64,000 nucleotides of DNA, from assembly GCA_017499595.2 (NCBI GenBank), contig CM039005.1, positions 2,852,001 to 2,916,000 of the forward strand, read 5' to 3'. A model generated the notes under the pieces. It saw nothing but the letters and a program-made list of their open reading frames with translations. It ran no database searches and was not told the DNA's origin. This document shows, in pieces, positions 3,345 through 56,190 of the stretch. The stretch is from Psilocybe cubensis (lineage: Eukaryota). Both the position numbers and the translations under genes were made by a program. Within the stretch, counting starts at the first letter, position 1; each line of letters starts with the position of its first letter.

Positions 3345-3860
3345 GAGTATTCAAGAATCATCCCTTTAGTACATCCATTTGAATAGACGATAGGTGCATG
3401 TAAAATTTCCATCGTTCAATACACAACTGGTAGATAGACTCATCACGGTGTATGTATGTCACGTTCAAAATGCCAACTTTGCAATTCAGAAACACTCACC
3501 GCTGAAGTGGTAGATAAAGGGCTTCTGATTGTATGCGTCCCGAAGCGGTAGAGAAGAAAGATAAGATCTTTACACAGGACAAATTTTGGGCTCACCGAAA
3601 ATGCCAGATGCATGTCACCGCCGTCAGAAGCATGAAATCTTTTCCGACACACCAATTAGACAGATGCCGATTGTTCAACCATCAAGATTTTTGCTCGCTA
3701 TTCGACTGAGTCATAATGATTTAGAAGTTCCTTCTACCTCCTTACCTCCATAATGAGGTTACAGAGGTTAAAATCTGCTTGATTTGAGTGGCTAGTTTTG
3801 TGAAACATGTACCCTCCGGCATCCAAGTAAGCAGCCTGGCGCTCGCCCTCCATCTTTCAT
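3294..3860 (+). repeat. Segment duplicated at ~9047-9660 (last exon and 3' flank of the DUF6533 gene)
   Basis: gatgtatatggccaagatcgcatatcag... is nearly identical at 3300 and 9053. ORFs 3443-3655 and 9201-9413 are near-identical. Confidence 0.9.
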
Positions 3861-7714: not shown

Positions 7715-8559
7715 ATTATCAAAGAGATGCTTGAACAATTGTTTGCGTATGAGATTGCTGAGATGGCTTGATTGTTATCATAGTGACGAAGGAGGGATTC
7801 AGCAAAAGTCCGTCTTTTATATGCTGCCCCCTTGTACGTGCGAGCGAATTTGTAACATATATATCTCAGCCACCGATCGTTACCCACCCATTTCAACCAC
7901 CGATTTCCAGTCATACTGTAAGCCTTGCGTAGCTCTTGCACCAAGATAAAGATCGACTAGATTGAGGACATTCAATTTTATAGAATGGTTCGCTGTTGCG
8001 TTTTATTGCACTGGCCATTTAACAGACAAAGATCCATCATGCGGAGCCAGGATCGCCTGCCACAATTGTTTTCTTTTTGAAGCCTATAGCATTCTAGTAA
8101 AACATAAGAGTCAATATTGTTCAATTACATGTTGTCTTGGGGCAAGGATGATGTTGTACTGCACACCTTGTTTTCGAAGAGGTGGGAAACAAAGTGAGTG
8201 AATACGCAGGTACTGCACAGTTTTATTGAAGAAAACAATAAAATCAAGAAATGTTGATGACTTACCTTGTGCAATGAAATTGTCAAGTTCACTAATAGCA
8301 GAACCTTGTTGGACATGGACATTTCGATGGAGTCGGAGACGCCCTCAGGGTGTCAGTACAACGGCTTGGATACATTGATTATTGGCATCATGGTAGGTCA
8401 ACGATAGAGAGTTCCGCTGGCACAAAGCATAGCGTTTGACATAAAAGCTGCCTGAACATCTGGCATGGCTAGGAGAAAGCTTGAAAAAAATCGTACGACG
8501 TTGAAGTTGAAGTTTTGTATTGATCACGTGTGTTTACCCCACTGCAAACCGGCATCGGA

Positions 8560-11500: not shown

Positions 11501-12160
11501 AAGTGAGTACTCACTCATGTATCCATGATCCCCGATCCTAAGCTGACTATCTCCCAAGTCATTCCATAGTCGAGGATGCCTCGGAAACAATCCAGTCGAA
11601 GGAAAGAAGGTAGGGGGGAAAGATATGGGTAGTTGTGTTATACTGGCGCGTCATCGGTATCAACAGATGTTGTACAGGATTAAAGATGTTATCTATAATG
11701 CATAATTTTTGAAATCGATTGATACTCTAAACCGTGAGACTTTTTGGATTTGAAATAGATTCCAACTTCAAGTCGGCTTGTTTGCACGCACACAATACAT
11801 TATATGAAAGCCGACTCTGACAATCCCTAAAAATCTATATGAGCTTGGAACTATGCTTCTGGGAATTTTATACGATACCATGCACCCTGCACGTCATCGT
11901 AAGTCTCGTTGGGGTAACGGACTGCAACCGGCAACCAACCGAACAGCTTGAGCCTGCCGGACGGCTCGACGTGATGAATCAATCGGAGTAAAATCGGAGT
12001 CGAGAAGTGTCAACTGTCGGATCAGCCAAGAACAGCCTGAGGCCAGCAGAATTTTGATGATCACCCAAACTCTGTGTCGAGATGGCGGCCATGCTGGTAT
12101 ATTGTTCAACTAGGCCTTCTCATATCTTCGTTGAGGGCCGAAATATCAAAATATTGAGGG
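8560..12160 (+). repeat. Tandem segmental duplication, copy A (copy B ~12450-15930)
   Basis: aaaaacatgagatt.tagatggtgagccttt starts both copies. Upstream region, gene 5' end and 3' flank align, while the central exon has diverged. Confidence 0.9.
10088..11528 (+). CDS. Orphan, probably disordered Ser/Pro-rich protein (family member 1)
   Basis: Exon ORFs 10043-10288, 10320-11030 (ending ATAVRR/gtaa) and 11298-11528 have splice signals. TATTTAAA lies upstream at ~10021. Confidence 0.55.
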
Positions 12161-12449
12161 AGAAGGGCAATGTAGAATGGTACTTGCTCAGCTATTTGTG
12201 AGATATGCCTCGACAATAACACCGGCATCTGCCCGTGCCCCTCCGGTTTCCTTTAGGGCGGATCTGTAATGGCTATCTCGACTGGATATATAATTTCACA
12301 CTACTCATGGGCAATAAACACTGTACGCCTGACGTGACATCAGCCGTCTTTATTGCACCAACCACTTTCATGCCCGTTCCTGCTCCATCCGACGACAGGT
12401 GCTTGTAAATACCAACGTATTTCCATTGACGGCCCATATTCCCTACATA

Positions 12450-15400
12450 AAAACATGAGATTTTAGATGGTGAGCCTTTTCCGTTTAAAATTCCCGCACC
12501 GTCTTGCTATCAACAGTTCAAACCAAAACACCTCATCACTATGTAGAAAAATTTGTTATATTTGAAAAATTCAATATTACATACGTTTTGAACAGAAATG
12601 CTTGTTTTGAAGCTTGAGTTATAGTAGGAAAACACAACTTTATTCCTGTTGGACCTTTGTGTATGTTAACGCTCAGGCATTACTGTAAGTCAGCAGTTTC
12701 CAGGAGGTAGTGTTCTGAACGACCTTCACGCTATGTGCTTTAAATATTAGCAACAGAATTTGCTTTTTGTTTGTTACTACGTGTTTCAATAGTCACAAAA
12801 TCAGAGTTAGATAACGAAGTACCTATCTGCCTTCGAGGTACGATGGGAATCCAGTACAATTTACTGTAGGGGTTAACAAAGGATCTAGTCCCTTGACCGG
12901 CCATCAACCTCTTCCAACACAGTGATCTCTCTTATCAGAAAGAGGCCGATTGTACACGCGGGTAGATTGATCGAGATTTTCTTTCGCCACTGGACGGAAT
13001 CGCGATTTAGAAGTGCTTCGTCCCTGCGGATTTGGATAATATACATGCTACGAACACCACAGTGACCTTACCTCCTCAACGAGGTTGCAGGACATAAACT
13101 CTGTTTGATTTGACTGGCATGTTTTGTAAAACATGTACGCTTCTGTATCGAGGTAAACAACTTAGCGCTCACGCTCTAAGCCTCAACCACACAGCATGCA
13201 CCTCACGCAGTGGAGTGCGTATCTATCTTCGCCTTTTGTTTGTGTGTGCATTGTCGGAGTTATCTACAGGAGACGTCGGATGGCGCATCTCCCACCCGAG
13301 GATGTAGAATTTCAACCGGAACTTAGGTTCCATTCCACGAGGTGTTATCTTTCGGTCTTTAGTGCGTCTTAAACCACCCAAAAGACGCAAAAAGGAAATT
13401 GCAATGCAACTTCCTGGGAAACGAGATGACATTCACGATTGTGTTTAGGTTGGAGAATTGAATCAGGTATTTCCTGGTAGGACAAAGGGCGGTTGTACCT
13501 CAGAGAACCTTAGAGAGCCTCATGTCGCGTGTTGTTATAACGTTCTTTGTTGTTTAAAGAATATATATACAAGTGACCCATTCAAGTATCGTTATCCCGT
13601 ATTTGAAGAATAGCAAATCATCTTACCCATACTCGTATCCCTCTTCCATCTTCTCCCCCATCGAGGACTCCAGCACGTCTAGCATGCCTACCTTTCGCAA
13701 TGCACCAAGAAAGTACCCAGAAAGTTCTCATCAAGCCAACGGAAAAGGCTCAAATCAAGCCAGCGGAGAAAACTCAAGTCAAGCCAACGGTGAGAAGCAT
13801 GCTGGTCATTCATCGATGTGCCACTCACAATGATTTATAATATCTGACGTCTTCTACAGATTTTATGGCATTCCTAGACTTTGGTATCAGCGACAATTAC
13901 CCCAGTGTTAACCCTGAGGACATGCTGTCCACAGGCCCCGTGTTTGATCCAGATCTTCTGGATTCATTGCATTCATCACTCTACATCCCTGATTTGAGCC
14001 GCAACCTTCATAACGAGCGATCCAAGTCAGCTCATTTCCCAACTTTAAGTGCCAACTCAGGGTTAAATATGGCGACGTATCCGACAATGGGTCGCAGCCA
14101 CACGTCACACGATACGCCGACTGTGGCATGCGCGTCAGTGGAACATCCTGTGTATGTGTATGCGTCAAGTGCTGGAGGTGCACCAACGTTTTTGAGCAGT
14201 CAGGGAGGGGAAAATGCTTGGACACTACCCATACTCCTGACAGCTTCGAAGATACGGAGTGATCCTAACGAGATCGATGGGATAGACGTAGAGATGGAGT
14301 CTGTCCCCGATGCTCGACGCGAGGAAGATATCGAGTGAGTTTCTTCCACTGCGTTTCCAGCGCTCTATCCGTCCGTTTTCTTACAATGCCACCACTCCCA
14401 CATAGCGTCGAAATGTTATACATCAGTGAAAAGATATTCGAGTATCCAGGAGGCCGTGATATTCTTACGACACCATTGGCCCGGAACCCTCTTCCATCGT
14501 CTCCCCCATCGAGGACTCCAGCACAATTAGCTCTTCTACCTCGAATAGCACACCAGATAACCATGCAACTGGTTCAGGTCAGGACATCAAGGGTGAGAAT
14601 TATGCCGGTTGTTCATCAATGTGCCACTCACAACGATTTTGCAGTGTTGACCTCGGCGGAATTTCTGCAATCGTTAGGCTTCGATATCAGTAGTCTTGAC
14701 CTCAATGGTAACATGGAGGTTATACTACTGTCAATCGCCCCGAATTCGAGGAAGCTCTTATATCGAGCACTCCGATCCAGCATATCTGCCTCCATCGAAT
14801 GCGAGTCAGGAGCTACCTATGACGAAGTATCCGACGATGGAAACTATCCAGACGTCACACGATACTCGCTACCGAGTCTCGTTCAAGGAGCCCAAGGAAA
14901 GGCGCCAGTCGGATGCCTAAAGGTCGCACCCGCGATCAAGATACGACGTATGCAGCGTTACTTTTTACACACCTGAGAATTCTCTAAAATTTGGCCTTTT
15001 TCGCAGAGATTAACGGAACCAAGGGTCACTGGACCCGTCAACCGTGTTCGGCGATGGCAATGGTGGCGGGCCTATACCAGGCGAAGTGAAAAAGGAGGGT
15101 AAACAGGGCAAGTGATATGATCACTTGCTATTCCAGAACCAAGCGCCAAAATCCCAGAAGAATGTGGGCCACCTGTGATACCTGCATGAAAAGGCGCGGA
15201 CAGACCAAATACTGACATTGGACCACAAAATAAACCCAAGTGAGTACTCACTCGTGTATCCTTCCCCAATCATAAACTGACTATTTCCCAAGTCTTTCCA
15301 TAGTCGATGATGCCTCGGAAATAGTCCAGACGAAAGAATCAACGTAGAGAGGAGAGATATGCGTAGTTATATCTTACTGGCGCGTCCTAGGAATCGATAG

Positions 15401-15930
15401 ATGTAGCACGCTGAGATTAAAGAATATGTTACCTTTAATGCACAATTTTCGAATCGATTGATCCTTTCCACCGTGAGAGTTTTTGTTATTTGAAATATAT
15501 TCAAAGCTCAAGTCGGCCTGAATGTATATACCATACTCTGCGTGGAAAATACTCTTATTATGCAAGGACATCCGCTTCGCATTATGCTTCTGGGAATTTT
15601 GTCTGATTCTGTGCGCCCCTGCACGTCAGCGGCAAGTCTTGTTGGGGTACGGCAATACTTGCCGAATAGATCATCATCATGAATCAATCGGAGCAAAAGC
15701 GGAGTTAAGAAGTCGAGGTTCAGCCGAGAAGTGCCTGAGGCCGGCATGACATGCCAAAATAATTTTGCAGTTCTCCAATGTGTCAAAGTTTAGTCTGATT
15801 CAGAACCGAAATTGTGGCTCATATTCGCTCATCTTCTATGTTGCAGCTATTTTACAACTCGAACTTGGTATAAGGTTCAAACCTCGCCTGCTCATAGCTT
15901 CTGTGACGGCCCAAAATAGTCAAATATTGA
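12450..15930 (+). repeat. Tandem segmental duplication, copy B
   Basis: Aligns to 8560-12160 but lacks the 9047-9410 insert. Confidence 0.9.
13684..15280 (+). pseudogene. Paralog of the 10088 gene (family member 2), probably disrupted
   Basis: It shares the MAFLDFGISDN.PSVNPED exon. It has an internal re-duplication of its own 5' part at ~14490-14720 and CGA>TGA at 15113-15115 in the frame that reads GKRYD in copy A. Confidence 0.5.
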
Positions 15931-17955
15931 GCGAAAAAAGTTGATATTATGATACCTACACTTGCCCCTGTCAATCTGGATTTATGGACATTTAGACATT
16001 TAACTGCGCACTACCGATACGTAGTATCGTGCACTTTGGAAAGCCAACGAGTCACGACTCGGCCCCACTCTTCCACAAATTTCCCACGATGACAATTACC
16101 GCCAGCTAATTGAAATCGCCAAGTCCCGAACGCACCCGACCTGCTTTTGACTCTTCACTTCCTTCCAATTCATCTTTGTTCAACCCTATCTAACGAAGGT
16201 CAGCCAACTTTCATGCCCATTGGTCCTCGACCGCACCACAGGATTCTGTAAAAATGGGGGTTTGGGTGGTGAGCCTGACCATCTGATATTCTAGCCCTGT
16301 CTCACCATCACCAGTTTCAAACCGACACACCACAACCCTACTGCGAAGGGAGCAACATATTTCGCTTTGCCAGTAACTTGATTCTCTGTCTCGCTCTTTC
16401 AATCCACCTCCAAGACGTGGTATCCATTCCTGATTGGTTGTTGTCTGATGGTACGCGCAGGTTTTTTTTACTCTTCGTTTGCTTGCGATACGTGATTCTT
16501 TTTTCCCTCCATCATCAGTGGGGCACGGACATTCCATAGGTTGCCTCAATCCCACAGTGTTGCACGTCGTACATGCTTCAAAGCCGCAATTTCGATTCGT
16601 AGCCTTAAGATCTTGCCTTATTCTCTGTCACCTTTATGCCTCACCACCCTCTATTCAATGTGCGTCATCGTGATGTAACCTGATCAAGTGGATATCGTAT
16701 TTCAATATTCAACAGGTAAGTGAACCATCGTGACCTTCCAAATTGAATTCGCTGTAGCACACTAGAACAGAAAAGGAACCAGTACAAATACCGGGCGCAC
16801 AATGGAGTAACGAGGACCCTGAATGAGGAAGGTAAGTGAGGGAATGTTCTTCAAAACCAGAGACAGCTCGTAAGCGTTGACTCTCTCTCGTTCGTCGCTG
16901 GTTAAGGGGACCCTCTGCGAACTTTCCTTGTCCATTTGATTACGGCGTGCCAGGAGTACCCCCATGTTCGAGTACCTGTGGGATTTTTCTTCCGAACTGC
17001 ATCTCAGATTGCTTTGGAGAGGCACTCCGTTGCTTTAACATGGTCATCTTGCGATGTTCTTCGTGTTTTCAAATCCACAAGAGTCTCCGTGCGGCCTCGT
17101 GTGCTTTACATATCTCATCTTTCGAGCTATACCTGGCAATTTCCTTGGATGAAATAAGTCACCATAACTTAACCCGCGAATTGAGAAAGTGGAACTCAAA
17201 ATCTCTACGTCAGATCTTATTGCCATTGAGCCGTTGCCCGTTTTTGGGCCCAGTAGGTTGCCGACGTGGTCAAGATAGTGGCGGGTAGAGCTTTAGTTAT
17301 TCAACTCATAGTCTTCCCAGTAGGGATCACCTGCAGGGCGTCTTCTACGAGATGGTTCCTCGAGAAAATTCAGGAATACGCTCTGAGTCCTCTGGACCCA
17401 GCGCAAGATACATTGGACACATATCTTCAAGGCTAGGAGACTTCGCCAGAGAACTTCTCGCATATTCAGTGAATGTGATGAAGTCTATTTTATCTGTCTG
17501 CAATGATATGCTAGCTGGCTCGTTGGATGACCAGCAGAATACACAGGATGGTAGAACGGAGAGCGGGAATTGAAAGGGAAAGCAAGGTAACAACGTCTGG
17601 GTTATTTGTCCCTCTATCATGTGTTAGAGCACTCCCAGCCTATGTGCAGACACGATGTCGAGTTGAAACTCTTAAATTGTATGCCCACCAATCGGAGTGA
17701 GCCTGACTCAACACACCATCAACACCGATATGCATCACCGTGACTCACCTGATCACTGGGATAATCCTACTACACGCTTGTGAGTGGATGTCAGACCACG
17801 ATGTTTTTAGCCTGAACAATGTTACTCTTATTTAAAGTCAGCAGATTAGACTGTTAGTGGCCATGGACATGAGTGCTGCTACAGATTACTAGTGAGAAAA
17901 ATATCATCGACTTGTGCGTGAAAGCTGCTTACTGGGTAAATGGTTTAAAGGGATA

Positions 17956-18447
17956 TTATCCCAGTTTTGTACACTCAAAAGACGCAATCCTTCGGTAACG
18001 GGGTGGGACACCAATTCTGGGTAGGTTGGCAACATCCCCGCTGAAAGATTGTTCGGGGCCTATGCACTCGATAAAGCTGGCAGGGAAAGTAAGTTAAAGA
18101 TGATGGACACACAGTGGCAGGAACTGACGCATAGAATGCACAAGAATAGCCAGAGGAAATTTCCAAACTCTCCGGTCTGTTTTGCCTACCGAGCGGGAGG
18201 TCGATACAAAAATCGGGGCCGGAATATATAGGAGAGTATGAAGTACCGCGGAAAGAGGTGTACTCATAAAATGTAATGGACATTTCATCGGGGTCCTGCT
18301 TTAGTGGAGTAGGCTACTGTATTAGTGAGAATAACATGAATATAGCGAACATTAACATACCCGCACAACAGTGGGAACGGCTTGTGCAACCATAGTCGAG
18401 GACAGTGCTCCAAAGAGCAGAGCAATAAGGTTAACAGTGAATTTCAT
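17956..18447 (-). CDS. Small secreted protein, beta/gamma-crystallin-like (killer-toxin-like) fold, 3 exons, intact
   Basis: Spliced product: MKFTVNLIALLFGALSSTMVAQAVPTVVR/DPDEMSITFYEYTSFRGTSYSPIYSGPDFCIDLPLGRQNRPESLEISSGYSCAFYA/FIECIGPEQSFSGDVANLPRIGVPPRYRRIASFECTKLG*. It has a signal peptide, a Y/FxxxxFxG Greek-key-like motif, 4 Cys and a terminal SFxC. Confidence 0.8.
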
Positions 18448-19212
18448 GTCCGTGAGAGCTGACAATGAAGAAATCGTTTGGGGTAGCGAGTCAAGCGATT
18501 TGCTGAGGACCTTTATGCTTGCTGGACGCGATTCCTCCAACTTTGACACAGAATGTATAAGAGTCTAATATTAATATTGACAAATCCAACATTGGAATGG
18601 AACAACCCATGAGCCGAAATCAGTGTGAAATTACAAAAATATTATTTAGTACTGATGTCGGAGGTTGTTAATTCTACGTGTTCTAACTTCTAAGCCTTAT
18701 TAGCATTCATTAAATACAAATGATTTTACTTCATAGAATATTCTAGTACAATCTCCGGGACTGAACTCCTATCCCAAGACTCCGTAGTACTTAAGGATTA
18801 GGTACACAATTAATAACAAACTTTTTGGATTCCCCTCTCGGATATAGCCTACGTCTCGCTCTCGCGCGCGCCCTCGTCGTCTTGTCCCCTGCGGTGATTC
18901 GAAGCTAGCGTGGTAGCTTACACCGCCATCTCGTCTCGTCGTGCTCCGTCTCGTTTCGTGTCTCTATCGTTTGGCTAGAAGCCGTGTGGAGCACGCTCGC
19001 TCACACACGCGTTCTGCGAGTCTTGTAGGTGTTGTTGGGTTGTTTCCCACGCCCTCAGGAGCTCGTTGAGCGTATCAGCGGCATATCTCACTGTAACACA
19101 TTCACATATTGTTGGCCAGGATGCCAGTAGACATATCCCAACTGCATTGGAGTACCTGATTTACCTTTAACCAAAACCAGTTCCAATCAATTGTGGTGAT
19201 TAGAGTGTGACA

Positions 19213-19516
19213 CAAGGGGCCCTCCCCGGAGCTTACCGAGAAATCAACCCTACCCTTGAGGTCAAGGGAGTGGCTGTGTTGCTGGTGCGGCAGAGCCTGA
19301 AGCTTGAAGGCCTGACAAGTCACAAGCAAAACTGCCATTGCACATAATTATATTGTGGTTCACGTAGACCTATGTGAACATATTGTAAGCCGACAAAGCA
19401 TGCACTTCTGTCGTCAATATTTGAGGTATAATCATTGGATTGTCGCTCAACACAGCCACTCCCTTGACCTCAAGGGTAGGGTTGATTTCTCGGTAAGCTC
19501 CGGGGAGGGCCCCTTG
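19213..19516. mobile_element. 304-bp MITE with perfect 69-bp TIRs and 8-bp TSD
   Basis: 19213-19281 is the exact reverse complement of 19448-19516 (CAAGGGGCCCTCCCCGG...). GTGTGACA flanks both sides (19205-19212 and 19517-19524). Confidence 0.93.
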
Positions 19517-19747: not shown

Positions 19748-19868
19748 CTAAAAGTCTCTTGTGCACACAAAGGACTTGATGTTTCGGAAAAGGACAGGGT
19801 CACCAGTTGTGGGAAGGTGGGAAACTTCCCCGCTTAGTGATCGTCCGTGGCCTTGGCATAGAACAAAG
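19748..19868 (-). pseudogene. Detached exon 3 of the second crystallin-like secreted protein gene (exons 1-2 at ~32209-32535)
   Basis: Encodes FVLCQGHGRSLSGEVSHLPTTGDPVLFRNIKSFVCTRDF*, which is colinear with exon 3 of the 17956-18447 paralog and is preceded by a TCCAG acceptor. Confidence 0.9.
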
Positions 19869-19959
19869 CTGGACACCTGTAATTACCCTGCTTATATATA
19901 AAACCCTTGCACTGCAATAAAATGCTCCATACATGGCAGCAGGCACTTGCTGCATGGAT

Positions 19960-20500
19960 AATCTATTATCCATTTACTTAGTCTGCCTATCAATTATCCA
20001 TTCCGTTATCCAAGAGCCTTGTTATCCATTATCCATTCCCGTGTGCGCCATTAACAATTGTTTCTATCCATTGTCCGCCGTATCATCCAAAGGGTACATT
20101 ATCCATAGCCCCGCTTCATGATCCAACAGCCGTTATCCATTTCTGTGCGCGCCATTAATAATCTATTCCATCCATTGTCCGCTGTATTATCCAAAGGGTA
20201 CATTATCCATAGCCCCGCTTCATAATCCAACAGCCGTTATCCATGTCTGTGCACCCCATTAATAATCGATTCCATCCATAGTCCGCCCTCTTATCCAAAG
20301 GGTATATTATCCATATACCCCTGAATTATCCAACTGCCCACTATCAATTTCCATGCAAACCATTCATGACCCGCTCTATCCATCATCTGTATTCTTATCC
20401 ATGGGTCATTTCCCCCTTTCATACCACGATATTCATTGCCCTGCGATTATCCAAGAGCCGTTTATCCACTCCCCTGCGCCTTATTCAACACTATCTTCCA
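19960..20500 (+). repeat. Left subterminal array: about 3 copies of a 104-bp unit, dense in TTATCCAT/ATCCA
   Basis: atccata recurs at 20101, 20205 and 20309. Confidence 0.9.
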
Positions 20501-20692
20501 AGAAAACAATTACAATTCCAAGAAAACATACACTATAAATATACAGAATCACTAAAAGGATGTCAAGATGTACAAGGTACGTTCTGTCTGCATCAGCTGG
20601 ATGCGAGCGCAATAAAAAGCTCAAGAGAATTGAAAAAAACAGTCTGAATGTCCAAGATCACGTGTCAAAAACAAATGCCAGCGCATCACGCC

Positions 20693-23544
20693 TCAAGCCT
20701 TCGCTTTCTTTGTTCTTTTTTCCTTCCCAGTTTCCTCCGCCGCCTTCCTCTTGTTGTTCAGTTTCGCCTTTTGGAAGGTGTTGAAGGTGTTGAGTAGGTC
20801 ACTTACTGCTAATTCCCAGAGACCATCCGAGGCTTGAGCCGAGTACCACCACTTTAACCCAACCATCACTGTCAACAGCCCATTGGGTCCACCTTTCCGT
20901 AACGAAGCCATTGAATCTTTTGCCTTCGCAGTCTCGAACGACAACGGAAGGGAATTCGGGGTTTTGGTTTGACGCCACGCCGGCTGTATGGAGTTCCACC
21001 AGGTCATCCATGACTTCTGAAATTCGTCTTGACGGATAGCTGGGATAGCGGTGTATTTGCGGGATGAGGAAAGCCATTTCCCGAGGGCTGTTGGTCTGCC
21101 TTTCGCGGGGAGCCTCAACTGCAACGGTAATCAGTATCTTTATCTGCTTTTGTGCATGATCCGGGACTCACAGAACTCGTATCCATCTCAGCAATTTCCA
21201 TTCTCTCGAAACTCTCCCATGCGCGCACACATTCCTGCCATTTTTCTACCTCGATATCTTTGAATAGATATTCACTCGCTGCCAACAGCCATGCTGTGGT
21301 CTGTGGAGCATCCTTCGAAGCTGCTGCCTTTCTGTTACGACTACGCGTTGCACTGGCGTCCAAGTTCTCGCTTTTGTCTGGAGCCGCAGTCAAAGGTGCA
21401 TGCATGCCACTCTCGGGAATAATTGGATCGTTTACTGCATGGTTGGATAGAACTCCAGCTGAGTTTGTGGCGCTGAGCACTGGCGCTGACGTCTGGGCAG
21501 GGACTATGGTGTGAGGTGCTGAGATGGAATGGTTTGGGTCCAATAGCATCGGTGCGTTTGCCTGTCCTGCCATCATATCCTGACTTTGTAACATTTGGCC
21601 ATGTAAACCAGGAAGCGTCACTGTGTTGTTTGTGTTGAGGGCAAGTGCGGTTCCCATCATGTTTGGATCCGCTGCGTACTGTTGCAGGGCCAGGTCAATT
21701 CTATCCCATTCCTCTTCTGAAAAGTTCAAGGTAAGTCCATCGCCCCTATTCGCATCACCCGCTTGTAGCCGCATCATATCCTGGCCTACAGCAGCTGTCA
21801 ACTGGTCTATGTCTTGGCCACCAACTCCATCCGTCATAGAAATGGCAGCACCATAAGGCAAGAACGCAGCAACTGGATTTGGGGCCACCTTGGCCTGTTG
21901 AGGTAGAGGATTGGCAGGCGGAAGGAAGTTTTGTGCCTCAATGGTAGCGTGGGTAGCACCATTTGTAGCTGGGTAACAAGGTGGGCTTGGACTTGCCACA
22001 CTTTGAGTCGGTTGCACCTGAGCTGGTTGGACTGTGCTTTGTGTCATGACAGGAGCCTGAGCAAAGCCGATGGCCACCGCCGGCGCCGCTGTCATAGAGG
22101 CCATTGCAGTCTGTTGTGCGGCCTCAGGGGGAGTATGAGCTGCAGTTATGGTGTTTGGAATAGGGCCAGAAAGCTGAGCGGCACTTCCCATGTGAGCATT
22201 GGTTGATGAGATGGGTACTGATGCAGCTGTATAAGTTGGATGGAAGGGCACCTGATTGATAGCAATTGGAAGGCCAGAAAGCTGAGCGACACTGCCCATG
22301 TGAGCATGGGTTGATGAGGTGGGGACCAACGCAGCTGGGTCGGGCACCTGATTGACAGCGATTGGAAGTGCATTGCTCTGAATCTCTGGTTGTGTAGTCA
22401 CAGGGGGAGTTGTTTCCGACAAGACATTTTCTTGCCCTGCGTCGCCGGTTTCAACTTTGCTGGTACTGGCAACTTGGTTCTCTTCTGGCTTTGCCTTTGA
22501 GCTATTGAGAGTTTGTCGGTCGCGATCCTCTTGCGCTAAAGAAAATGGTTGATTAGGTCACTATGTGTTAGAAATACAGATAAATTGCTCACAGAAAACA
22601 TTGTATAAAAAAAGTCTGAACGGCGATAGCACATGTTGGTAAAAATGTTCATTCGCAATAGAAAACAGTTGTTCATATTTGTCTCGACCGTTGTGGACAG
22701 CGACAGTACGAATTTTGCCTTGATCAGCAGGCTCAGGTCCTCCAGCAATTACTGTGAAAACCCATCCGGTACGACTGCTCATTTCATCTATAAACGCTTG
22801 GATAGTTTCCGGCAATGTCAAGAGATTACTAACTTTGTATCAGTAAGACTTTAGCACAAAGAATAGATCACTTACATTGCGCATTCTTCTGGAGACATGA
22901 CTTCCGGCATGTCAGGAATTTGTCCCTTCAGCTCCTTGAGCTTTGCCAACTCGGCACGAATTTCCGCCTTTACCTCATCAGACTCGTCATTCCAGGCCTC
23001 CCCGGTGCACTTGTTGATGATTGCAATTCGGTGACCTTCAGGATTGGTGCGGAGAGCCTCTATTACTCGTGGCCTAATGCGTTCATCATAATATTTCTTG
23101 GAATACAAATTTGTTTCCGAGAGAAGTCGGGGAGCGTTGTTGCCACCAATAACAATGGTCGGACCTCGCCGATGTTGGGTGCCGGCCCCACGATTATTAA
23201 ACCAATTAACAATTTGCTGTTACAAATATGACCTCGTCAAAGAAACTCATACACTAAGTATGAATTGTGCTTACGTTTTTCCGCAACTTAACCCATTCTG
23301 CATGAGAAAGTTCGGTTTTCGTTTGAGGCAAAACAACAGGTGCATTTTTCTTTTTCTTCTTCTTTTTTGGAACAGTCATTGGTCTAACTTCAGCCTCAGG
23401 CGTAGGCCACAAGACAAAAAATTCTTGGTATATTTTTGTCCAAAAATTGGGGGTGGTTTTTGTACGCTGGGACGCCTGGAACTCAGGAACCTTGGCGGAT
23501 AGAAACTCAATTTGTTCGGGAGTCCCCCACGGTAGCGGCGGCAT
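20693..23544 (-). CDS. Transposon accessory protein 1 (about 5 exons): homeodomain-helix-like and HMG-box-like segments, low-complexity middle, Trp-rich C-terminal domain
   Basis: Colinear exon ORFs 23254-23544 (FWTKIYQEFFVLWP), QIVNWFNNRG, 22872-23108 (YSKKYYDERIRP...EAWNDESDEVK), 22561-22821, 21115-22422 and 20693-21124 (WWNSIQPAWR...GGPNGLLTVMVGLKWW). Confidence 0.75.
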
Positions 23545-23846
23545 TTTGATCTAAGTATAGCAGTTGTTCTAAGAATAAATGAATGTCAAATTGTTTGTTT
23601 TTTAAGCGCACGCAAACTCACCTCAAATAACAGAGTTAGACTTAAGGTCCAGAAAATGCAGTAAGACCTTCTAGCTACTTCTTCGATTTGACGGCAATAG
23701 CTTGCTTACATTATTGAGAGATTCACCGCAATTTACCGTGTAACTGTACAGTTGCTGATGCTTCTTTGGACTCTGCATATAAAGATGCTCCTATCTGCCG
23801 CAATCTTATCCTTAACTCCCTACTCGCAAAAAAAACCTCTCACAAA

Positions 23847-24916
23847 ATGGCTCAACAAAGTACACCTCCCCCAACTCTCCCTAATTCTACCGTCCCTCCC
23901 TCTACCGCCCCTGCAAGCCGTATAATGTCTACCCGTGTTGGCGACGTTATCAATCTCCTTCTTGCACTAAACAATGCTGGTACGTGCCCATTTTTGAGTT
24001 TCATGTTAATTTCAACTTGTTTACATTTAATCAGGATTAGAAGTTGTTCGTACACCCGATGGCGTTGATCATGCTTCAGGGTTGGAAAACCTTGCCATGG
24101 GGGAGCTTATCTTGATTCTCCAAATCATGGGCATTCATGTCAAGGGTAATCGCGCTACTGCTGCACCCCCTCCTCCTTCTGATAGTAAGTCATCTTCGAC
24201 TCCCTTTAACCTAATGTTTTATTTAATTGGACTGTAGGCCGTGATCCCTTGGTCCAAGAGATTGAACAGATGGTTATTTCATCTGCTCGTCGTCAGGCTA
24301 TTAATCTTTTCTTTAGGCTTACCAATGGGCCGTTGAGTAAGTGAACACTGTTCATACTATCATGCTCAGCACAATCTAATTAATTTTAGCCGTCCCACCT
24401 GTCATTCTTGAAGAGTTATCATCAACTGTGGCTCCCCCTCCTTCGTCTGTTGAACCACAGGCCACCGTCACTGATCCTGCCCTACTTCCTCCAAAGTCCC
24501 AGTCTGCCTCCGACACTGTCATGCCCAAAGGCTTTGTGTGCATGTCCTGCAACACGTATAACCCTATTCGCCCATCTGAAAAGCCAGTCTACGTTGTGTT
24601 TTGTGGTACAGATGTGGGGGTCTTTGACCATTGGTATGTTCCACATTCTTTTGAGATTGCATTTTGCTCAATTTAACACATATTTAACAGGAAAGATGCT
24701 CAGAGCCTTGTTTCTGGCATATCTCATGCTTGCCATTGTCGTTATAATAGTCGCGAGGAGGGTGAGAGGGCGTTCCAAGCTGCTTTGACTGCCGGAAAGG
24801 TTCGCATACTTGGTAATCCTATTGCTGCGCCTGGAGCTATTGTCTCTTCCTTGTCCCCAAATGCCCCCAATGGCACCTCTGGCTCCTCCAGCGAGGCCTC
24901 TAGTAGCTCGGATTAA
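23847..24916 (+). CDS. Transposon accessory protein 2 with CxxC motif and RNase H1 N-terminal (Cauli_VI, hybrid-binding)-like domain
   Basis: MAQQSTPPP start. The spliced C-terminus reads GFVCMSCNTYN...VYVVFCGTDVGVFDHW/KDAQSLVSGISHACHCRYNSREEGERAFQAA, matching YxVxxGxxxGV(F/Y)xxW...V.G.......(F/Y).S.EEA. Confidence 0.75.
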
Positions 24917-25266
24917 TGAGTAGACTTACTCCACCCTCGGGGTTTTTCCTTTTCCGTTCAATATCGTGTAGACAGCACCATTTGTCACCGCGTATGAAAA
25001 GTTTCCCCGCACTTTTAGTAGCACCACTTGTATCTCTTGTACATCTCATTTTGATTTCTTGTCTGTGTTTCCGAATATATCTTGAACTTGTGCTGCTCTC
25101 CATATCCGTGTGAATGAAATCTTCAATAATCAAATAAAATATTATTGAATGTCTCTTTTGTAGAGTCATTATATTATGCCATGTACCCCCATGCACCGTA
25201 GCTTCAATGTCGAACGATATACAATGATGTTTGTACTATATTAAAAGTCCAATAGAAGTAATAACC

Positions 25267-25960
25267 CTATTGCGAAACCTTTTGAAATTCAAAGGATTTA
25301 GCATTGTAGTTGCGTTCAACGAATTCAAGGTCTTCCATTGCAGTCAATTCAATCTCTTGCAACCAAGATTGTGTCTTCTCTAGCAGTTTTGCAAGAGCGA
25401 CTGTCTTATTCCACTCTGGGCCAACTCCTGAACACATATATATATGGTTTTTATATCGGGAAATTGGCCCAAGAAAGTGCTCTATCTTGTCAACCGATTC
25501 CGATAATTCGTGCATGTCTTGATTGCTGATAAACTGGAGGCAGATTGCCTCAGTATGTGCAATAGGATCCGATTTGATAAAGGTGTTGAAGCGCCGGTAG
25601 ACTCGAAGAACTTCGTCCAACCAAGTGGCCGCCGGTGGCTTTGACTTGGAGACAGGCTCTTGTTCAACAGCCTGTGCTTTACGTGCCGTTTCAATTCTAG
25701 AAATGAAGATTAATTCAATCTATAGAGATTATGCACATTCATAATCAGCAGGAATACCTTTTTTGTTGGATGCGAGCATATTTTCTTCTGCGACGTCGGT
25801 TTATGCTATCCTTGCATCTAAAAAACATTATAAAACATGTTTGTAACCAGATTTATGGGAGGAAAACAACTGAATGCTACTTCTCATAATATTTCTTGCT
25901 CTTCTGCCTATTTGCGGCAAGTTTCTCAGCTTCAGAAAAATACTTGCGCTGTCGTCCCAT
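25267..25960 (-). CDS. Transposon accessory protein 3, basic N-terminus and helical C-terminus
   Basis: ATG 25960 MGRQRKYFSEAEKLAANRQKSKKYYEK, then introns, then last exon ORF 25267-25620. Confidence 0.65.
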
Positions 25961-26540
25961 TGGTAAAGGTGAAAGCCAGGTAGCGATTTATTAGAAACTT
26001 TGCATTACTTACACGCCATTTCAGGGCTTCGTCTGACTTTTTTAACTACCAGGTAAACCCCCCCTCCAAAGGGTACCAATTGAAACATTGAATTAATCTA
26101 CACTCAACTCTCGTCATCCAGAGCTTTACAACCATCTGTGCCGATGTTCTATGGTTTTTGAACTCTGCAAGATAAGTTTTCAGGCTATGTCTAGACTGGG
26201 ATTGAAAATGTAAAATAATAATAGAAGACCTTACCGTCATCCATTTGTTCGTTGGCTATCAATGGCTGGCAGCACCCTAATGTCAACCTTCAGCTTCATT
26301 ATCCATTTACTAGTCCTTTATTGATTGGGACTTACTTTACCGTCATCCATTCATTCAATTGTTATCCATGAGTTGTTTGCAACACTCTTGTCCTCGTTGT
26401 CCATTTCCTTGCCTGTTATTGATCAATTATTTTTGCTGACTCGCTGCTTATAAGTTGGGATGAACGCCACAAAACTCATCTGCATCACCTTTGACCTGCC
26501 CATAGACACCACTATCGCGTTTATCAGCAACTCACAACCA

Positions 26541-27069
26541 ATGGCCAAGGTTAAGCAAAGACGCCGTCGTACAGATAATTTCAAAGGTCCATCGGTGAGT
26601 AGACTTGAGCCTGATTGTTATAAAATGTGATCATTTTTACTAAATTGTCGTTCAAATTTGTAGGCAGTCACAATAGAGCCCGGCATTAGACCAGTTACAT
26701 TGGATACGAAGTCCAAACAAGACAAATTTCTCGCCGATGCTGGCCCATATTATCGCCAGGCCAAGTCTAAGGGAGAAAAGGAAGAGTTTCTTCACGAAAT
26801 CAGCCAACTTTGGTTTAGAATTTGGCCGGAGGATCCGTTGAATACGGCAGACATTGATTTTGCACGTCACAGACAAAAGAATATTATGAAGGTGAAAGTT
26901 GTGTTTATATTTTTGTATGCCGCTAACTAACGTCTATATGTTACAGAAAATCAGAACAAGGCTGTTACTCCTCGGTGCCTTTGGGATTGTGGAAGGAGAT
27001 ACGTTGTGGAGGGACTTTATTGCTGCCAAAATGCACGAGCTCCATCCTGACAAGCTACCCTCTGTCTGA
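26541..27069 (+). CDS. Transposon accessory protein 4 (3 exons, small)
   Basis: MAKVKQRRRRTDNFKGPS/AVTIEPG...FLHEISQLWFRIWPEDP...NIMK/KIRTRLLLLGAFG...DKLPSV*, with canonical GT-AG introns. Confidence 0.7.
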
Positions 27070-27144
27070 TCTAGCCACTGTTTTGTTCGGCTTAATGTAC
27101 CTACTACATAGTGGTCCAGATTTTAAATTTGCACAAATTATACT

Positions 27145-30100
27145 CTAGTGACACTCAACCATTTTGTATGCATTACGGCCTTCTGACATGGTCGTCAACT
27201 TCTCTGTTACACCATCCCATTGTTTCGCACAACGGTCACCTATATCACGTCGTATATCTGCCTGTTTCTTTGCATAAGCAATCTTACCAGAATTGATAGC
27301 TTGTGCATCTCGGTTAGGTACATCCGTCGAGTCGATGATATCCTGTGCACGAGAATCCCACTGAGCGGCTTGCCAAGCAAAAAAAGCAATAACACGGCGC
27401 ATCTCCTCTGCTAATAATACACACTCCTCTTGCCAGCGATGTGCGCGTGCACGGGCTTTGCACCATTCGATACGAAGAGCTGGACACTAGCATTTGTTTG
27501 CATTCAATTAGGTAAGGTAAAGACAACACACCTGCCTGTGTACACTTTTCGGCGTCTTCGCCCATACCGTGTACCTTCCATATCCAGGACAGTTTCTTGC
27601 GGCCTTCACTTCCAGAGTCGTCCATAGAGCTCAGTCCTCTAACATCAGTGTCCAGCAGTGGACGAAGGATATCACGCCACGTGTAGTATACCGTTGGCGT
27701 TGAAAGCAAATCAAGAGCTTGATACGCAACATTGTATCGCGCTGTTGCAAATTTAATCTTTTCTTCAACAGCTGCGAGCAACGTCAAGCTTCTTGTCTGC
27801 ATACGCTGTCCTCGTGAGTGTCGCTTTTTTGAGTTTAGCATATGTGAGCGAAGGAGTAAGAAAGCACGGAGGTTGTTGAGGCAATCTTCAGCCTGGGCAT
27901 ATCGGTACTGCGATTCGCATTTTAGCAATATGTGGGATGAAAATCGGATGGTTTCTGTGTTGTAGGAAGGCAAATATAGCTTGATATCCTGTACCGCTAC
28001 TGGTGTCTCAGCCTGCAAGTTTTCGCGCGCACGCAGAGCTGCAACTGCAGGCATATAAAGGTGCTGTATATTTATCCAAGCATCAATGCGTCGTTTTAAT
28101 GAGTTTGATCGTTCGAGAATTTTAGTCTGTTGGATGTTCGTAGAATGGGCTCCAAGTTTGGAGATGTCAAGCGCAAGTCGTGCTCTAGTCTTGTTTGTAA
28201 CCATGTAAAAAATAGCCTATAAACGACGTACTGTGATTCCTCAAGCTGTAAGCCCTGTGATATCAAGACACTCGGAGTTACTTCCTCATGTAAAGTAGTC
28301 ATCTCTCCGCGTTTTAATGCATCTGAGTCCTCACGAGCTAATTGAAGACGAACATCGGATTCCTTGACAGAACCTAGCAATGCACCATAAACAATAGAAC
28401 AAGAATCAGAAAAATACACGTACTATTCTTCGGAATCACATAGGGATTCGGTTGACTGGAGTCCTTTTCCCATGTCAAACACATCTGGGTCCATTCCGAC
28501 GTCGATTCTTCTGGCAATGCAGCGTCAAACTCAATGAACGCCTCGACCTGTTCTTGTCGCTCTTGAATAGCTTCCTTCGCTTTCCGTAAAAATGTTTCAA
28601 CTAAAGTGCTTGTCAATATATGTGCATAGATTGCAGAATATTACGACGTACCAATCGTGATAATTTTTCGCCAGTTATAATCTCCAAAATGGTCATCCAA
28701 TGTGTCGTTCCGAGACCCTGGCCCCATTTCCTTTGTGCTGCTGGCTATACCGTTTGCCGTTGCCCATCCTCTCTCTGGTGCCTCCCCATCTGTGCGCCCA
28801 ACTCCCGGAGTATAGTTGAAAGAGAAAGACGTTTGGCATTTCTGAATATGAGCAGCAAGGTGGAATTTTGGTACGAGGTAGACAATGGAGAGATTTGATG
28901 GATCGGAGAGCACATTCTTAGGATATAATTGGCACCTTTTCATGAGATTGATCCACCATTGGCAGGCAATGTCGTAGGAGACAACAAGACGGAGTAAAAG
29001 TGTGGCTGCGATTGTTGATAAGAAGAAATAATCCATATTAACGTATCTACGGCATCATGTGAGTCATGTTGACATGCAAGCATGTGACTGAAGACCTTAC
29101 CTTTCACCCTTTTGTAAGTCTCCTACTGCCACGGGTCGCTTCATGTCGTGTCGACTACATTCGGCTGTACCAAGTCCACTTGCTGCTGTCCCATGTCCAC
29201 CTCGTGAGTTAGCCGATTTGATAGCATCGTGGTTATTGCATGAGCTCTTTTCATCTGCAACTTGACCATCGTAGTTTGCCAAGTAGTTTTTGAATTTGCA
29301 ACTCTCAACCATATAGGCATATCCATGATTAAGCCCAGGGTCTCGCTCATCTGTAGATACGTTCATTCGCTTCAAACGAAAGTTGGCATCAATAGCTATA
29401 AAAAGAGAATAAAGCCATCTATTTTTGGACGTGACAATCAGACCCAATTGCCAGTGGACAACACCAACGAGTAAAAATTGGTACGTACTGTTCTGATTCT
29501 GGCCTCTCCTTCCAATTGTCGGGTAGATTGATGCCCGGGTGGGGACATGCAGGACATAGAACAGCACATTCACCCTCTTTAGTCCCATTAACACCGGTCT
29601 CAGAGTGACCTCGACCCATCCGTTTGAGGAGACGTACATGACGCCACTCACGTATGATCCTCAAGAAGACAGGATATCTGTCCTACATATTGAATATTAA
29701 AGATAGCAGGATAATAGAAGAAATGGAAGAGCTCACTGGTGGTGCCTTTGTGCCGGTGTTGTCTGTCAACCGTGATAATGTAGAGTAATACTCGTATCCC
29801 GAGACCTTCGAGTTAAATGAAAGGAGCTGAAAGTGTTCCAGCACATCAAATGTAGCCGCTGTTTTGGGATCGCCTACTGTAGAAGGAAATAAGCGGGCGC
29901 GAAGAAGTTGGATGGGCTTGGATGGTGCAGAAGGGCACCCGCAGTAGTCTAAGGCAATTTCATGGATTCCTGTACGCGCAATGACCACAAATTCGTCGTT
30001 GAAAGCTACCATTGGTATAGGACAGTCATCATGTCCCAGCTGCACTCGCATTCCAAGTTTCTTGAGGCTGGTCCTGCGAAAGTAATGTCCAGTCCAGACC

Positions 30101-30845
30101 TGCAAATTTGTCAATAATTCAGTATCATCATAGCCAACCCCACTCGCCTCGATTCTATGAAATGGGTTGACCGAATGAGACCGGAGAACACAAGCGAGAC
30201 ACAACAGAGATCCGCTCCAACAGTCTTTGCAGCGAAACGCGCCTGCTTCGAGGTCCGAAATACACCCAATTTCAGAGCATTTCTGGAGATTTGCCTGCCC
30301 ACCAATACCCTCCAGCCGGAGAAACTCTTCAACGTAGGTGTCAATATGCGGAGTCCAGAAGTGGATGGGATGTGTCTAATCGAATATGTGAGTGGTAGGT
30401 GCTGAAACACACATCTATTAGAGCAGGAAACTGTACGTACCGATTGTGTTTTTCGTTTTTTCTGTGGAACCTCTTCTTCAGGATCAGCTTGAACCTTATC
30501 TCCAGTCTTCAAGTTTGGCTTGAGATAATTCTTTAGCCCCAATGCCTCCAATTCGCATTCTGCCATTTCTTCCAACTCAAGATCACCATCAAAAATCCTA
30601 TACGGAGATTCTTCGCTCAGCACCCAATCAAGTCGAGGAGTAGGCGATTCCACAGAGCCTAGAGGAGGGGGTGTGGGAAGCATAGGCTGAATTCCTTGCG
30701 GCAGCGGCATCCGTATGGTATGGTGCGTGCGTCCATGGTATTCAGTGTGAATGTCGCCAAACGATGCTGTTTTCGCGTCTCGTTCATCAGGAGAGATATA
30801 TTCGTCATAATAAACCTTTTTCTTGCGATTCACTCGGCGTTTCAT
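27145..30845 (-). CDS. KDZ transposase with CxC2-like cysteine cluster
   Basis: Exons encode FRCKDC...CLACVLRSH..NPFHRIE, QLGHDDCP, TGIHEIALDYCGC, CAVLCPACPHPGINLP, AIDANFRLKR, ECSRHD...GDLQKGERY, SYDIACQW, VPKFHLAAH, GRTDGEAPERGW and LDDHFGDYNWRK. No stop or frameshift was noticed. One GC-AG intron lies near 30147. Confidence 0.93.
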
Positions 30846-30969
30846 GTTGTAAGTTGAAAGAACCTGCGAGCTAAGTGTATACACAAAAGAGACAAGGAAG
30901 CTTTGAACAGAAACGTCATTTCCAAGGAGACTAGAAGCGGAAACAAGAGGATGTATAACTCATACTGAT

Positions 30970-32065
30970 ATGGATTATTAGCTCAGAGTGGTTGATGGAT
31001 ATTTTACAAGGAAATGGATAGACTTCAAACATTGATGGACAGTAAGGAAAGGTATCAATGACAGTGAATGATGGGAAATGTTACGGGGAACCAAATTAAT
31101 AAGTGCCTGATCTTCACGGGTGACAAGCGGGATGGATTAACGGGAGGCCATGGATGACAAGGGCATTCAATAATCAACGTTGGTATGGATGGAGACTGCG
31201 CACTGCACGGGTGTCAAGAGTGATGGATAAGTAGAGGGGCAATGAATGATTAGGGCAATAAATGAGCGCGATGGATAATGAGAAGAGAAATGGATGTTGA
31301 GGGTGATGAATAATGAACGCACATATCGATAGGCGCCTGCACTACGCGGGTGTCAAGCCTGATGGATAATCAGAGAAATGGATGTCGAGGGCGATCAATA
31401 ATGAATGTGGGAATGGATGAGGGGCAGCCTGTGCAATGGTGGAGGGCGATGGATAATAAGAAAGGCAGTTGATGTCGAGGATGATGAATAATGAACATAG
31501 ATATCGATAGGCGCCTGCACTGTGCGGGTGTCAAGCCTGATGGATAATCAGAAAGGCAATGGATGTCGAGGGATATCAATAATGAACGTACATATTGATA
31601 GGCACCTGCACTGCGCGGGTGTCAAGCGTGATGGATAATCAGAAGGGCAATGGATGTTGAGGGAGATCAGGCTGATGGATAATTATATGGGCAACGGATG
31701 ACAAGGGCAATGAATAATGAACGTACATATCGATAGGCGCCTGCACTGCGCGGGTGTCAAGTGTGATGGATAATCGGAAGGGAAATGGATGTCAAGGGAG
31801 ATCAGGCTGATGGATAATCATATGGGCAACGGATGACAAGGGCAATGGATAATGAACGTACATATCGATAGGCGGGTGCACTGCGCGGATGTCCAGCGTG
31901 ATGGATAATCAGAAGGGCAATGGATGTTGAGGCCCATGGATGACATACTAGTTATGGATTACGAAGGGGTATGAATGACAGCGTGGGTATTGAATAATGG
32001 CTCAGCAGTTTGGGGAATACTATGGATAAAGTTCTAATGTATCTATCATAAAGGCGTTGGATAAT
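30970..32065 (-). repeat. Right subterminal array, ATGGATAA-rich, higher-order repeat of a ~45-bp monomer
   Basis: gataggc recurs at 31328, 31506, 31597, 31732 and 31867 (spacings 178, 91, 135, 135). Confidence 0.9.
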
Positions 32066-32157
32066 TATTGATGGGGAATGCATTGCCGTGGCTCATATAT
32101 GAGGTATGCGCAAGGTCTTCTGGAGGTTGATATATAAGAACGACTGCTACGCCTCAG

Positions 32158-32535
32158 CTGGAAGGGAAATTAAGTTAAGATGTTATATAAGCAGTGGAAG
32201 GAACTGACGCGTAGAAGGCACAAGAATAGCCATTGGAGATGACCAAACTTTCCGCTCTGTTTATCCATTTGGGCGGGAGGGTGATACATAGATCAGGACC
32301 AGAATATTCAGGAAAGTATGAAGCACCGCCGAGAGAGGGTTCGTCAAAAAATATAATGGAGAATACATCGGGGGCCTGGTTTAGTGGTGTGGGCTACTGT
32401 ATTAGTACGAATAACATGAATATAGTAAGCATTAAGAATTTAACATACCCGCGCAACAGGGGGAGCGGCTTGTGCAACCATAGTCGAGGACAGTGCTCCA
32501 AAGAGCAAAGCAATAAGGTTAACAGAGAATTTCAT
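32158..32535 (-). pseudogene. Exons 1-2 and intron 2 of the second crystallin-like secreted protein gene, interrupted by the KDZ element
   Basis: MKFSVNLIALLFGALSSTMVAQAAPPVAR/APDVFSIIFFDEPSLGGASYFPEYSGPDLCITLPPKWINRAESLVISNGYSCAFYA. Intron positions match the paralog. Confidence 0.9.
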
Positions 32536-55850: not shown

Positions 55851-56190
55851 ACAGGCCAAGACAATCAAGGAAACGAGGATCGACCTTTGCCCAATCTACA
55901 AAGCACTTCCAGCTGATTAACAATGAGGTAAAGGCATGATGAAATGTTTCTTATGAATATATTATGGTGTGATTTTCATCCGATGCTACACAATATGTTT
56001 ACCCAATGAAATCTCTTTGTCGTCTACACATTTAAATCCCGCCGGAGGCGACATGCAGATATTTAGTCTCCCCTTGAATTTACTGATAACCATTGACTCC
56101 ATAACGCATGCCTAAGAACAGGCCTCATGCCAACCTCATGGCGTACAGATGCAAATGCTAGATAATCGTCAAAACACTGTCTCTAACCCA
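55851..56190 (+). pseudogene. Orphan fragment of the laccase last exon plus 3' flank
   Basis: cgacctttgcccaatctacaaagcacttccagctgattaacaatgagg matches 44991-45040 ([12 protein letters not shown], with CAA>TAA) and the match continues to ~45310. Confidence 0.88.

Follow-up and report, generated by a model that had tools for sequence, protein, structure and literature searches.

A stand-alone RNase H1-type hybrid-binding domain gene carried by a KDZ DNA transposon of Psilocybe cubensis

Results

A KDZ transposon inserted in a host gene

The window, i.e., the whole 64,000-nt stretch of Psilocybe cubensis DNA that was analysed, contains a DNA transposon that interrupts a host gene and carries a gene for a hybrid-binding domain (HBD) protein (Table 1). 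The genes of the element lie on alternating strands. Its transposase, P0157, matched PF18758 (E 1.2e-64) and PF18803 (E 3.8e-39). The initial annotation had placed the HBD gene within a KDZ DNA transposon, which is confirmed by the CxC2 and KDZ domains of the transposase and by the 7-bp duplications found at all five copies of the element in the genome. Based on the domains and the duplication length the element was filed as Kyakuja, the trees containing no reference Kyakuja transposases.

Each of the five copies has its own 7-bp target-site duplication, as do the elements at three related loci (L052, L055 and L063), giving 8/8. The five copies are 100% identical across the 1,601-bp HBD gene region, and the stretches compared at their ends, about 1 kb on each side, are likewise identical; the element is recently mobile. 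No TIR was found, as no terminal arm pair occurred among the 25 longest inverted repeats, and the only word common to the two ends is CTTATATAT, about 18 nt in. The termini are GA..TG in the window element and in L052, and CA..TG in the sister families L055 and L063. Immediately to the left of the element there is a perfect 69-nt inverted repeat (19213-19281 and 19448-19516, 166-nt spacer). Farther out, the duplicated blocks at 3294-15409 and 50443-58206 (70-95% identity) are probably tandem gene families, and an inverted pair lies at 58618-63523.

Table 1. Features of the transposon, its HBD gene and the insertion site, in window positions
Feature	Position	Strand	Remarks
Transposon filed as Kyakuja (CxC2-KDZ), 12,282 bp	19874-32155	-	ends GAGGCG...CAGGTG in transposase orientation
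Left 7-bp target-site duplication AGCTGGA	19867-19873	+	
Right 7-bp target-site duplication AGCTGGA	32156-32162	+	contains splice acceptor of the interrupted gene's last exon
Interrupted host gene, 5' part	32157-32535	-	small protein, signal-peptide-like start; paralogue ~17950-18519
Interrupted host gene, last exon	19748-19868	-	
Left subterminal repeat array	19965-20500	.	ATTATCCA words, 104-nt units
Right subterminal repeat array	31146-31970	.	TGGATAAT words, 44/91/135-nt units
Transposase P0157	27145-30845	-	CxC2 and KDZ domains, 1085 aa
Accessory gene g2	26541-27069	+	no Pfam match; kept in related elements; ends read from sequence
Accessory gene g3	25267-26050, 5' end approximate	-	no Pfam match; kept in related elements
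Accessory gene g5	20693-23544	-	weak HMG-box match, E 0.0096, below cut-off
HBD gene	23847-24916	+	5 exons: 23847-23979, 24035-24184, 24238-24336, 24390-24633, 24691-24916; 283 aa
N-terminal helices, residues 31-43, 66-75, 98-123	23937-24318, approximate	+	AF2 model, alignments
CxxC (C178 M S C181)	24539-24550	+	in predicted beta-hairpin; 13 residues before Y195
Cauli_VI / RNase H1 HBD, residues 194-233	24587-24763	+	Pfam, Foldseek; divided by intron 4
Intron 4 of HBD gene	24634-24690	+	phase 2, within the W209 codon (TG/G)

The insertion point is in the last exon of a small secreted-protein-like gene, 2 nt from the exon edge, and the genic insertion noticed in the initial annotation is thus real. 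Because the target duplication includes the splice acceptor, both halves of the interrupted gene keep an acceptor. The other four copies sit in a copia pol frame recognized by Pfam, at the start of a frame that is probably hAT-like, judged by a motif only (no Pfam match), in an open reading frame (ORF) without a Pfam match, and outside long ORFs. The GC skew of the five target sites ranges from -0.14 to 0.17, which is unremarkable.

Gene model and domain identity of the HBD protein

The HBD gene and g5 are arranged head to head, about 300 bp apart. The introns of the HBD gene are all GT-AG and 53-57 nt long, and the spliced frame is open over 283 aa. The model is identical to P0001, an annotated NCBI protein of Psilocybe cubensis (283 aa) retrieved with exon 4, and the coordinates given in the initial annotation were exact. 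Two sequencing runs guessed to be RNA had no cover over the HBD gene and are uninformative on its expression. The same runs gave four GT-AG joints without a long frame on the plus strand antisense to g5 (21127-22052), possibly from an antisense RNA.

A Pfam search with the spliced protein revealed PF01693 (Cauli_VI, currently named RNase H1 N-terminal domain) at residues 194-233, with an E value of 7.5e-7 and 29.7 bits against a gathering cut-off of 21. No Cauli_VI match was obtained when the two HBD-coding exons were scanned separately, so the match depends on the splice, in agreement with the pattern reported earlier for the spliced C-terminus. Cauli_VI was the sole Pfam family reported on the 283-aa protein, and the gene ends at 24916 after about 40 low-complexity residues that follow the HBD. 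Pfam found no catalytic RNase H domain in the chain, as the initial annotation had also stated.

The AF2 model is confident only at about residues 170-250, where the block has a pLDDT of 95-98 over the domain. The predicted elements (E194-200, E204-206, H209-216, E223-227 and H230-242) form the three-strand, two-helix HBD fold. A Foldseek search ranked the human HBD-hybrid complex (PDB ID 3BSU) first, with a TM score by target of 0.88, an rmsd of 1.0 Å and an E value of 7.8e-3, which exceeds the tool's 0.001 mark. VIA ranked yeast 1QHK first with a Z score of only 4.2. These scores on a predicted model are modest for a 45-residue domain, yet they agree with Pfam, and a profile of 15 relatives matched 1QHK at 6e-6 and 3BSU at 0.0035. 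Both the HMM match and the structural match proposed as checks were therefore obtained, the nearest fold being that of the human HBD, and there is very little doubt that the protein contains an HBD and that its gene is transposon cargo.

The CxxC directly precedes the HBD, as had been noted. It is invariant in alignment A4, whose members were selected for CxxC. Two chains may pair through their single CxxC motifs; a homodimer prediction with zinc scored 0.04 and has no weight either way. The N-terminus contains a short L-x-x-L-x-x-A-L-x-x-x-G-hydrophobic motif that recurs across the family. No known fold and no usable Atlas match was found for the N-terminal helices, and TAF10 was rejected as a relative because its match was not significant.

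Distribution of the HBD gene and its linkage to KDZ transposases

The 96 KDZ matches in the genome were collapsed to 40 loci by score and position, and the 39 loci other than that of the window were inspected over 9.5 kb downstream and 5-8 kb upstream. A clear CxxC-HBD gene was present at three of them (L052, L055 and L063), whose transposases are 51-56% identical to that of the window. The gene order transposase, g2, g3, HBD gene, g5 is common to the four families in the genome, and the HBD gene and g5 are head to head in all four. A divergent HBD that lacks the CxxC is located at L122, upstream of another transposase; it has the same intron, lost the first conserved Gly and scored 10.6, against 12.5 for the top control. 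The other 35 loci had no HBD in the DNA inspected (9.5 kb downstream, 5-8 kb upstream).

A genome-wide Cauli_VI search returned only the two RNase H1 genes. Because it missed the transposon copies, its counts represent minimum numbers. When residues 160-255 served as the query, a word-based search for homologues returned nothing but the protein itself, and an exhaustive search gave 167 representatives at E <= 0.001. Among the 150 of these that were listed, 147 had Cauli_VI, five also an RNase H-type domain and one a PIF1 helicase. A CxxC within 30 residues upstream of the HBD was present in 32 of 127 motif-matching relatives among the matches listed, and all 18 CxxC-HBD proteins looked up were named from Agaricales. 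Pattern matches below 16 bits (17 of 29) were dropped; L137, an arginase, was a false match. Several family members are already labelled 'Ribonuclease H1 N-terminal domain-containing protein' in UniRef.

Linkage to KDZ proteins extends beyond Psilocybe. In Pholiota molesta three HBD proteins are 1-3 accession numbers away from KDZ proteins, on contigs of equal size, and among the matches listed two Hypholoma proteins and one Ephemerocybe HBD protein lie on contigs that match in size those of KDZ proteins. At least 6 of 19 HBD records are thus putatively KDZ-linked when set against the 120 listed of 1,613 KDZ matches. In metagenomes, an HBD scored above the reversed-sequence control in 11 of 77 KDZ loci, most of which are too short to cover the HBD position; two of the 11 are near-identical. 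Among the 11 metagenome contigs with the whole g5-to-transposase interval, six have the HBD and five do not. A metagenome scan with the HBD alignment, whose one pattern spans the intron, found nothing, and a pattern-limited scan of viral contigs found no relative.

Intact HBD frames occur across transposases that are about 32-61% identical. The orthologous gene at L232:4835-5555 retains the N-terminal helix and the CxxC and stops before the HBD, a natural deletion variant. In the metagenome relatives (L167, L181, L184, L205, L211 and L232) the cassette lies upstream of the transposase; relative to these, the four Psilocybe families therefore have an inverted transposase. At least six gains or losses of the gene, four of them forced by well-supported branches, are required by a quick tree of 53 rows (three left out for low cover). 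The CxxC form occupies one well-supported clade, with the domain in 9 of 10 rows. Because of these gains and losses and the presence or absence of the domain in metagenome contigs, we regard the HBD gene as old, widespread and optional. A distribution limited to a single clade, with no HBD gene at any of the 36 other loci, was ruled out by the metagenome contigs and the tree.

The co-occurrence with KDZ transposases that the initial annotation had proposed to measure thus holds as linkage in Psilocybe, Pholiota molesta and the 11 metagenome loci, and does not hold for every element, as some relatives lack the gene; its presence in three further families, Pholiota molesta and the metagenome loci shows that it is not absent from related elements. 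A literature search found no description of an HBD gene in KDZ elements; Iyer 2014, which reportedly defined these elements and their neighbours, was outside that search and may mention the domain. The gene is a conserved helper gene of a known transposon class and is apparently undescribed.

Binding surface and selection

In the available parts of PMC7261153 and PMC10639055, the binding surface of the human HBD consists of W43, K59 and K60, and W43A abolishes binding while lysine changes lower it about tenfold (PMC7261153). The W43 equivalent (W209 in the window copy) is kept in 28/28 CxxC-HBD proteins. The K60 equivalent is basic in 28/28 and the K59 equivalent in 26/28, and the Y29 equivalent is kept in 27/28. 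The R57 equivalent is lost in the transposon family (Cys in 23/28), and first-loop basic residues number 0.54 in CxxC-HBD proteins versus 1.62 in RNase H-linked domains. Judging from the conserved residues, the HBD family probably binds duplexes, gripping RNA:DNA hybrids and perhaps dsRNA without cutting.

In the window copy, C225 occupies the K59 position and R226 the K60 position, leaving one of the two basic; its first loop has no basic residue, and residues 194-237 contain 4 basic versus 6 acidic residues. The domain is net acidic, and with C225 and R226 its predicted binding surface ranks among the weakest in the family.

For L055 versus L063, dN was 0.056 and dS 0.31, giving a dN/dS of about 0.18 over 59 codons (12 synonymous and 7 non-synonymous differences), and this one pair is under purifying selection. 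The window copy versus L052 gave a dN/dS of about 0.31, near saturation. L052 versus L055 and L063, which are distant families, gave values near 1, but these are saturated, and the most distant pairs are uninformative.

Origin of the HBD gene

The TG/G intron in the Trp codon is found at the same place in both host RNase H1 genes, which Pfam found independently, in the three paralogues (L052, L055 and L063) and in 10/10 metagenome HBDs checked. In the available part of PMC9194440, exon 2 of human RNASEH1 starts at c.129. By our codon arithmetic this is the third base of codon 43, i.e., of W43 in the binding surface. Because this Trp codon is interrupted by an intron in the RNase H1 genes too, the HBD gene is nuclear-derived, not viral. 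Its descent from a nuclear RNase H1-type gene is well supported by this shared position, and the direct donor may have been RNase H1 or another HBD-bearing host gene. The shared intron makes the gene a clear example of a host repair domain that was captured and then retained in distant elements.

The two host RNase H1-like genes are located at G000:C1:1603255-1606335 and C8:1016087-1019302, and in the second of them the catalytic motifs seem to have changed. Two other kinds of HBD genes were noticed in the genome. A single-copy two-HBD gene without CxxC (G000:C8:2686500-2687400, L133/L134) is found some 6 kb beyond a Plavaka transposase (PF18759), and no bounds were found for that Plavaka element. 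The gene resembles a class of two-HBD proteins whose named members come from Mycena and Schizophyllum. Another gene (G000:C2:2400354-2400671; L089, L113 and L114) encodes an N-terminal HBD with a long low-complexity tail and is surrounded by housekeeping genes; no transposase was seen in its vicinity. In its class of 17 proteins both lysine positions are lost. One Atlas structure row for P0001 is a plant cluster in which 100% of the members have Cauli_VI and 45% have DUF8039, a domain known from transposon-related proteins.

Discussion

Possible roles of the HBD protein

We propose that the HBD gene is an old, optional helper of CxC2-type Kyakuja, built from the HBD exons of a nuclear RNase H1 gene. 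Its product would bind RNA:DNA hybrids, perhaps also dsRNA, without cleavage, and the N-terminal helices and single CxxC would probably serve self-association or partner binding. The protein could cover hybrid or duplex RNA from the element's own alternating-strand genes, and such a cover would exclude host RNase H1 or silencing factors so that the element stays expressed. The helper would then be an RNA-level counterpart to the TET cargo of other Kyakuja elements. Such a protective role, in which a non-cutting duplex binder would shield the element's RNA from host control, is in our view the most likely use, with a probability of roughly 0.4, and it corresponds to the second suggestion of the initial annotation, the countering of RNA silencing. 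The indications are indirect: the genes of the element alternate in strand, the joints opposite g5 hint at an antisense RNA, and TET genes occur in another Kyakuja clade and in none of the HBD-bearing copies. Patchy retention, with at least six gains or losses, fits a host-conflict gene rather than core machinery.

A conserved hybrid-binding helper is unexpected, because cut-and-paste transposons have no RNA intermediate. To our knowledge, no transposon-encoded R-loop-handling factor is known from cut-and-paste elements, and the HBD helper, if it is one, would be the first. If the protein does protect the element's RNA or R-loops, it would represent an RNA-level counter-defence beside the TET route of Kyakuja and would point to how mushrooms silence transposons. 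A bolder version, to which we give less credence, is that Kyakuja encode a non-cutting R-loop reader taken from host RNase H1 and acting as a dominant-negative decoy or silencing shield, with a zinc-CxxC dimer presenting two HBDs, and that Plavaka elements and transposons of plants may have acquired this domain in parallel. Several points speak against the protective role: TET and HBD elements are laid out differently, and caulimovirus P6/TAV is reported not to act via long dsRNA (PMC3509663, in the part available). Further points are C225 and the net acidic domain of the window copy, the loss of the R57 equivalent in the family, the five of 11 complete metagenome intervals that lack an HBD, the truncated gene of L232, and the dN/dS near 1, though saturated, between distant families.

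A less probable role is that of a targeting factor, which would anchor the transposase complex to R-loops or transcribed DNA, so that insertion is biased towards such sites. Three repeats of the HBD make a proven R-loop reader (PMC10639055, in the part available), the window copy lies in a host exon, and four of the five copies touch an open frame. However, ORF hits are to be expected in so gene-dense a genome, the HBD is on a separate protein with no evidence of transposase contact, two of the five sites are in other mobile elements and the target-site skew is weak. The suggestion of the initial annotation that genic insertion fits R-loop or gene targeting therefore does not carry over to the copies as a group; five sites are too few to show or refute targeting, and R-loop targeting has no support from them.

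It is unlikely that the protein aids transposition itself by binding hybrids at the G-skewed element ends or at the break and promoting excision or repair. The outward-reading strand is G-rich at both ends in the window family and L052 (skew 0.35-0.45), and in each of the four families the gene and the HMG-like g5 are arranged head to head. However, L055 and L063 each have one end with a weak skew (0.10-0.11), related elements lack the domain, and similarly skewed windows surround KDZ loci without the gene, which rules out G-skewed ends as an HBD-specific feature. Reuse of the fold for protein contacts, either as a decoy for RNase H1 partners or as a scaffold with g2, g3 and g5, appears equally doubtful. 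It would suit the net acidic domain of the window copy and L232, which keeps only the N-terminal part and the CxxC, and the host family of 17 N-terminal-HBD proteins without both lysines indicates that the fold can shed its surface; the transposon family, however, has retained W43, Y29, an F58-like aromatic residue and the two basic positions.

It is improbable that the gene is a neutral captured fragment or, as was suggested for the PF01693 gene of a Pleurotus Helitron, the remnant of a virus: presence is patchy, some elements carry a truncation and L122 lost the first conserved Gly, but frames are intact across transposases about 32-61% identical, dN/dS is 0.18 in one pair, the spliceosomal intron common to RNase H1 opposes a viral source, and the pattern-limited search of viral contigs returned no relative. 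Whether the HBD protein shields the element's RNA should be easy to test, because the protein is small and the family includes natural gain and loss variants.

Comparison with known systems

The transposon domain shares with the eukaryotic RNase H1 HBD (PF01693; 3BSU, 1QHK) its fold, Pfam match, W43, Y29 and K60 positions, and the intron in the Trp codon. It differs in lacking a nuclease and in its position, being C-terminal whereas the HBD of RNase H1 is N-terminal. It is also preceded by a CxxC and short helices, its second helix is longer, R57 is replaced by Cys in the transposon family, and K59 by Cys in the window copy.

Caulimovirus P6/TAV, to which the Pfam name points, has the same Pfam domain without a nuclease. 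P6/TAV is a viral multidomain protein, whereas the fungal HBD gene has a nuclear intron. P6/TAV suppresses silencing, and a review citing unpublished data states, in the part available, that this is not via long-dsRNA binding (PMC3509663).

Kyakuja elements, as described in the accessible parts of Kojima 2025 (PMC12730594), have 7-bp duplications, CA..TG ends (stated for two Laccaria families) and no TIR. The window element agrees with them in its KDZ transposase, 7-bp duplication, absence of TIR and Agaricomycete host. It differs from the families described there in having one GA terminus instead of CA and in carrying no TET/JBP gene, which those families carry (PMC12730594). The words 'Cauli', 'RNase' and 'ribonuclease' are absent from the accessible text and supplement (PMC12730594). 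TET genes occur in another Kyakuja clade of the genome; 25 of 33 TET hits lie 3-5.5 kb past a KDZ start on the opposite strand, and none of the 33 TET/JBP (PF12851) matches in the genome falls within the eight HBD-bearing copies. This exclusion amounts to about one comparison, because TET and HBD elements belong to different clades with different layouts. The idea that the HBD gene occupies the same slot as TET is weakened by that other layout.

The nearest published parallel is capE in the long helpo1.3 Helitron copy of Pleurotus ostreatus, which was read as endogenised plant-virus sequence (Castanera 2014, PMC4289320, in the part available). Like the HBD gene, it is a PF01693 gene inside a mushroom DNA transposon, in this case in a 10.7-kb extra segment with a putative transposase; it is a single case and was interpreted as viral (PMC4289320). 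The descent of the HBD gene from a nuclear RNase H1-type gene calls the viral reading of the Pleurotus gene into question, and the capE segment may be a nested transposon of the HBD-bearing kind.
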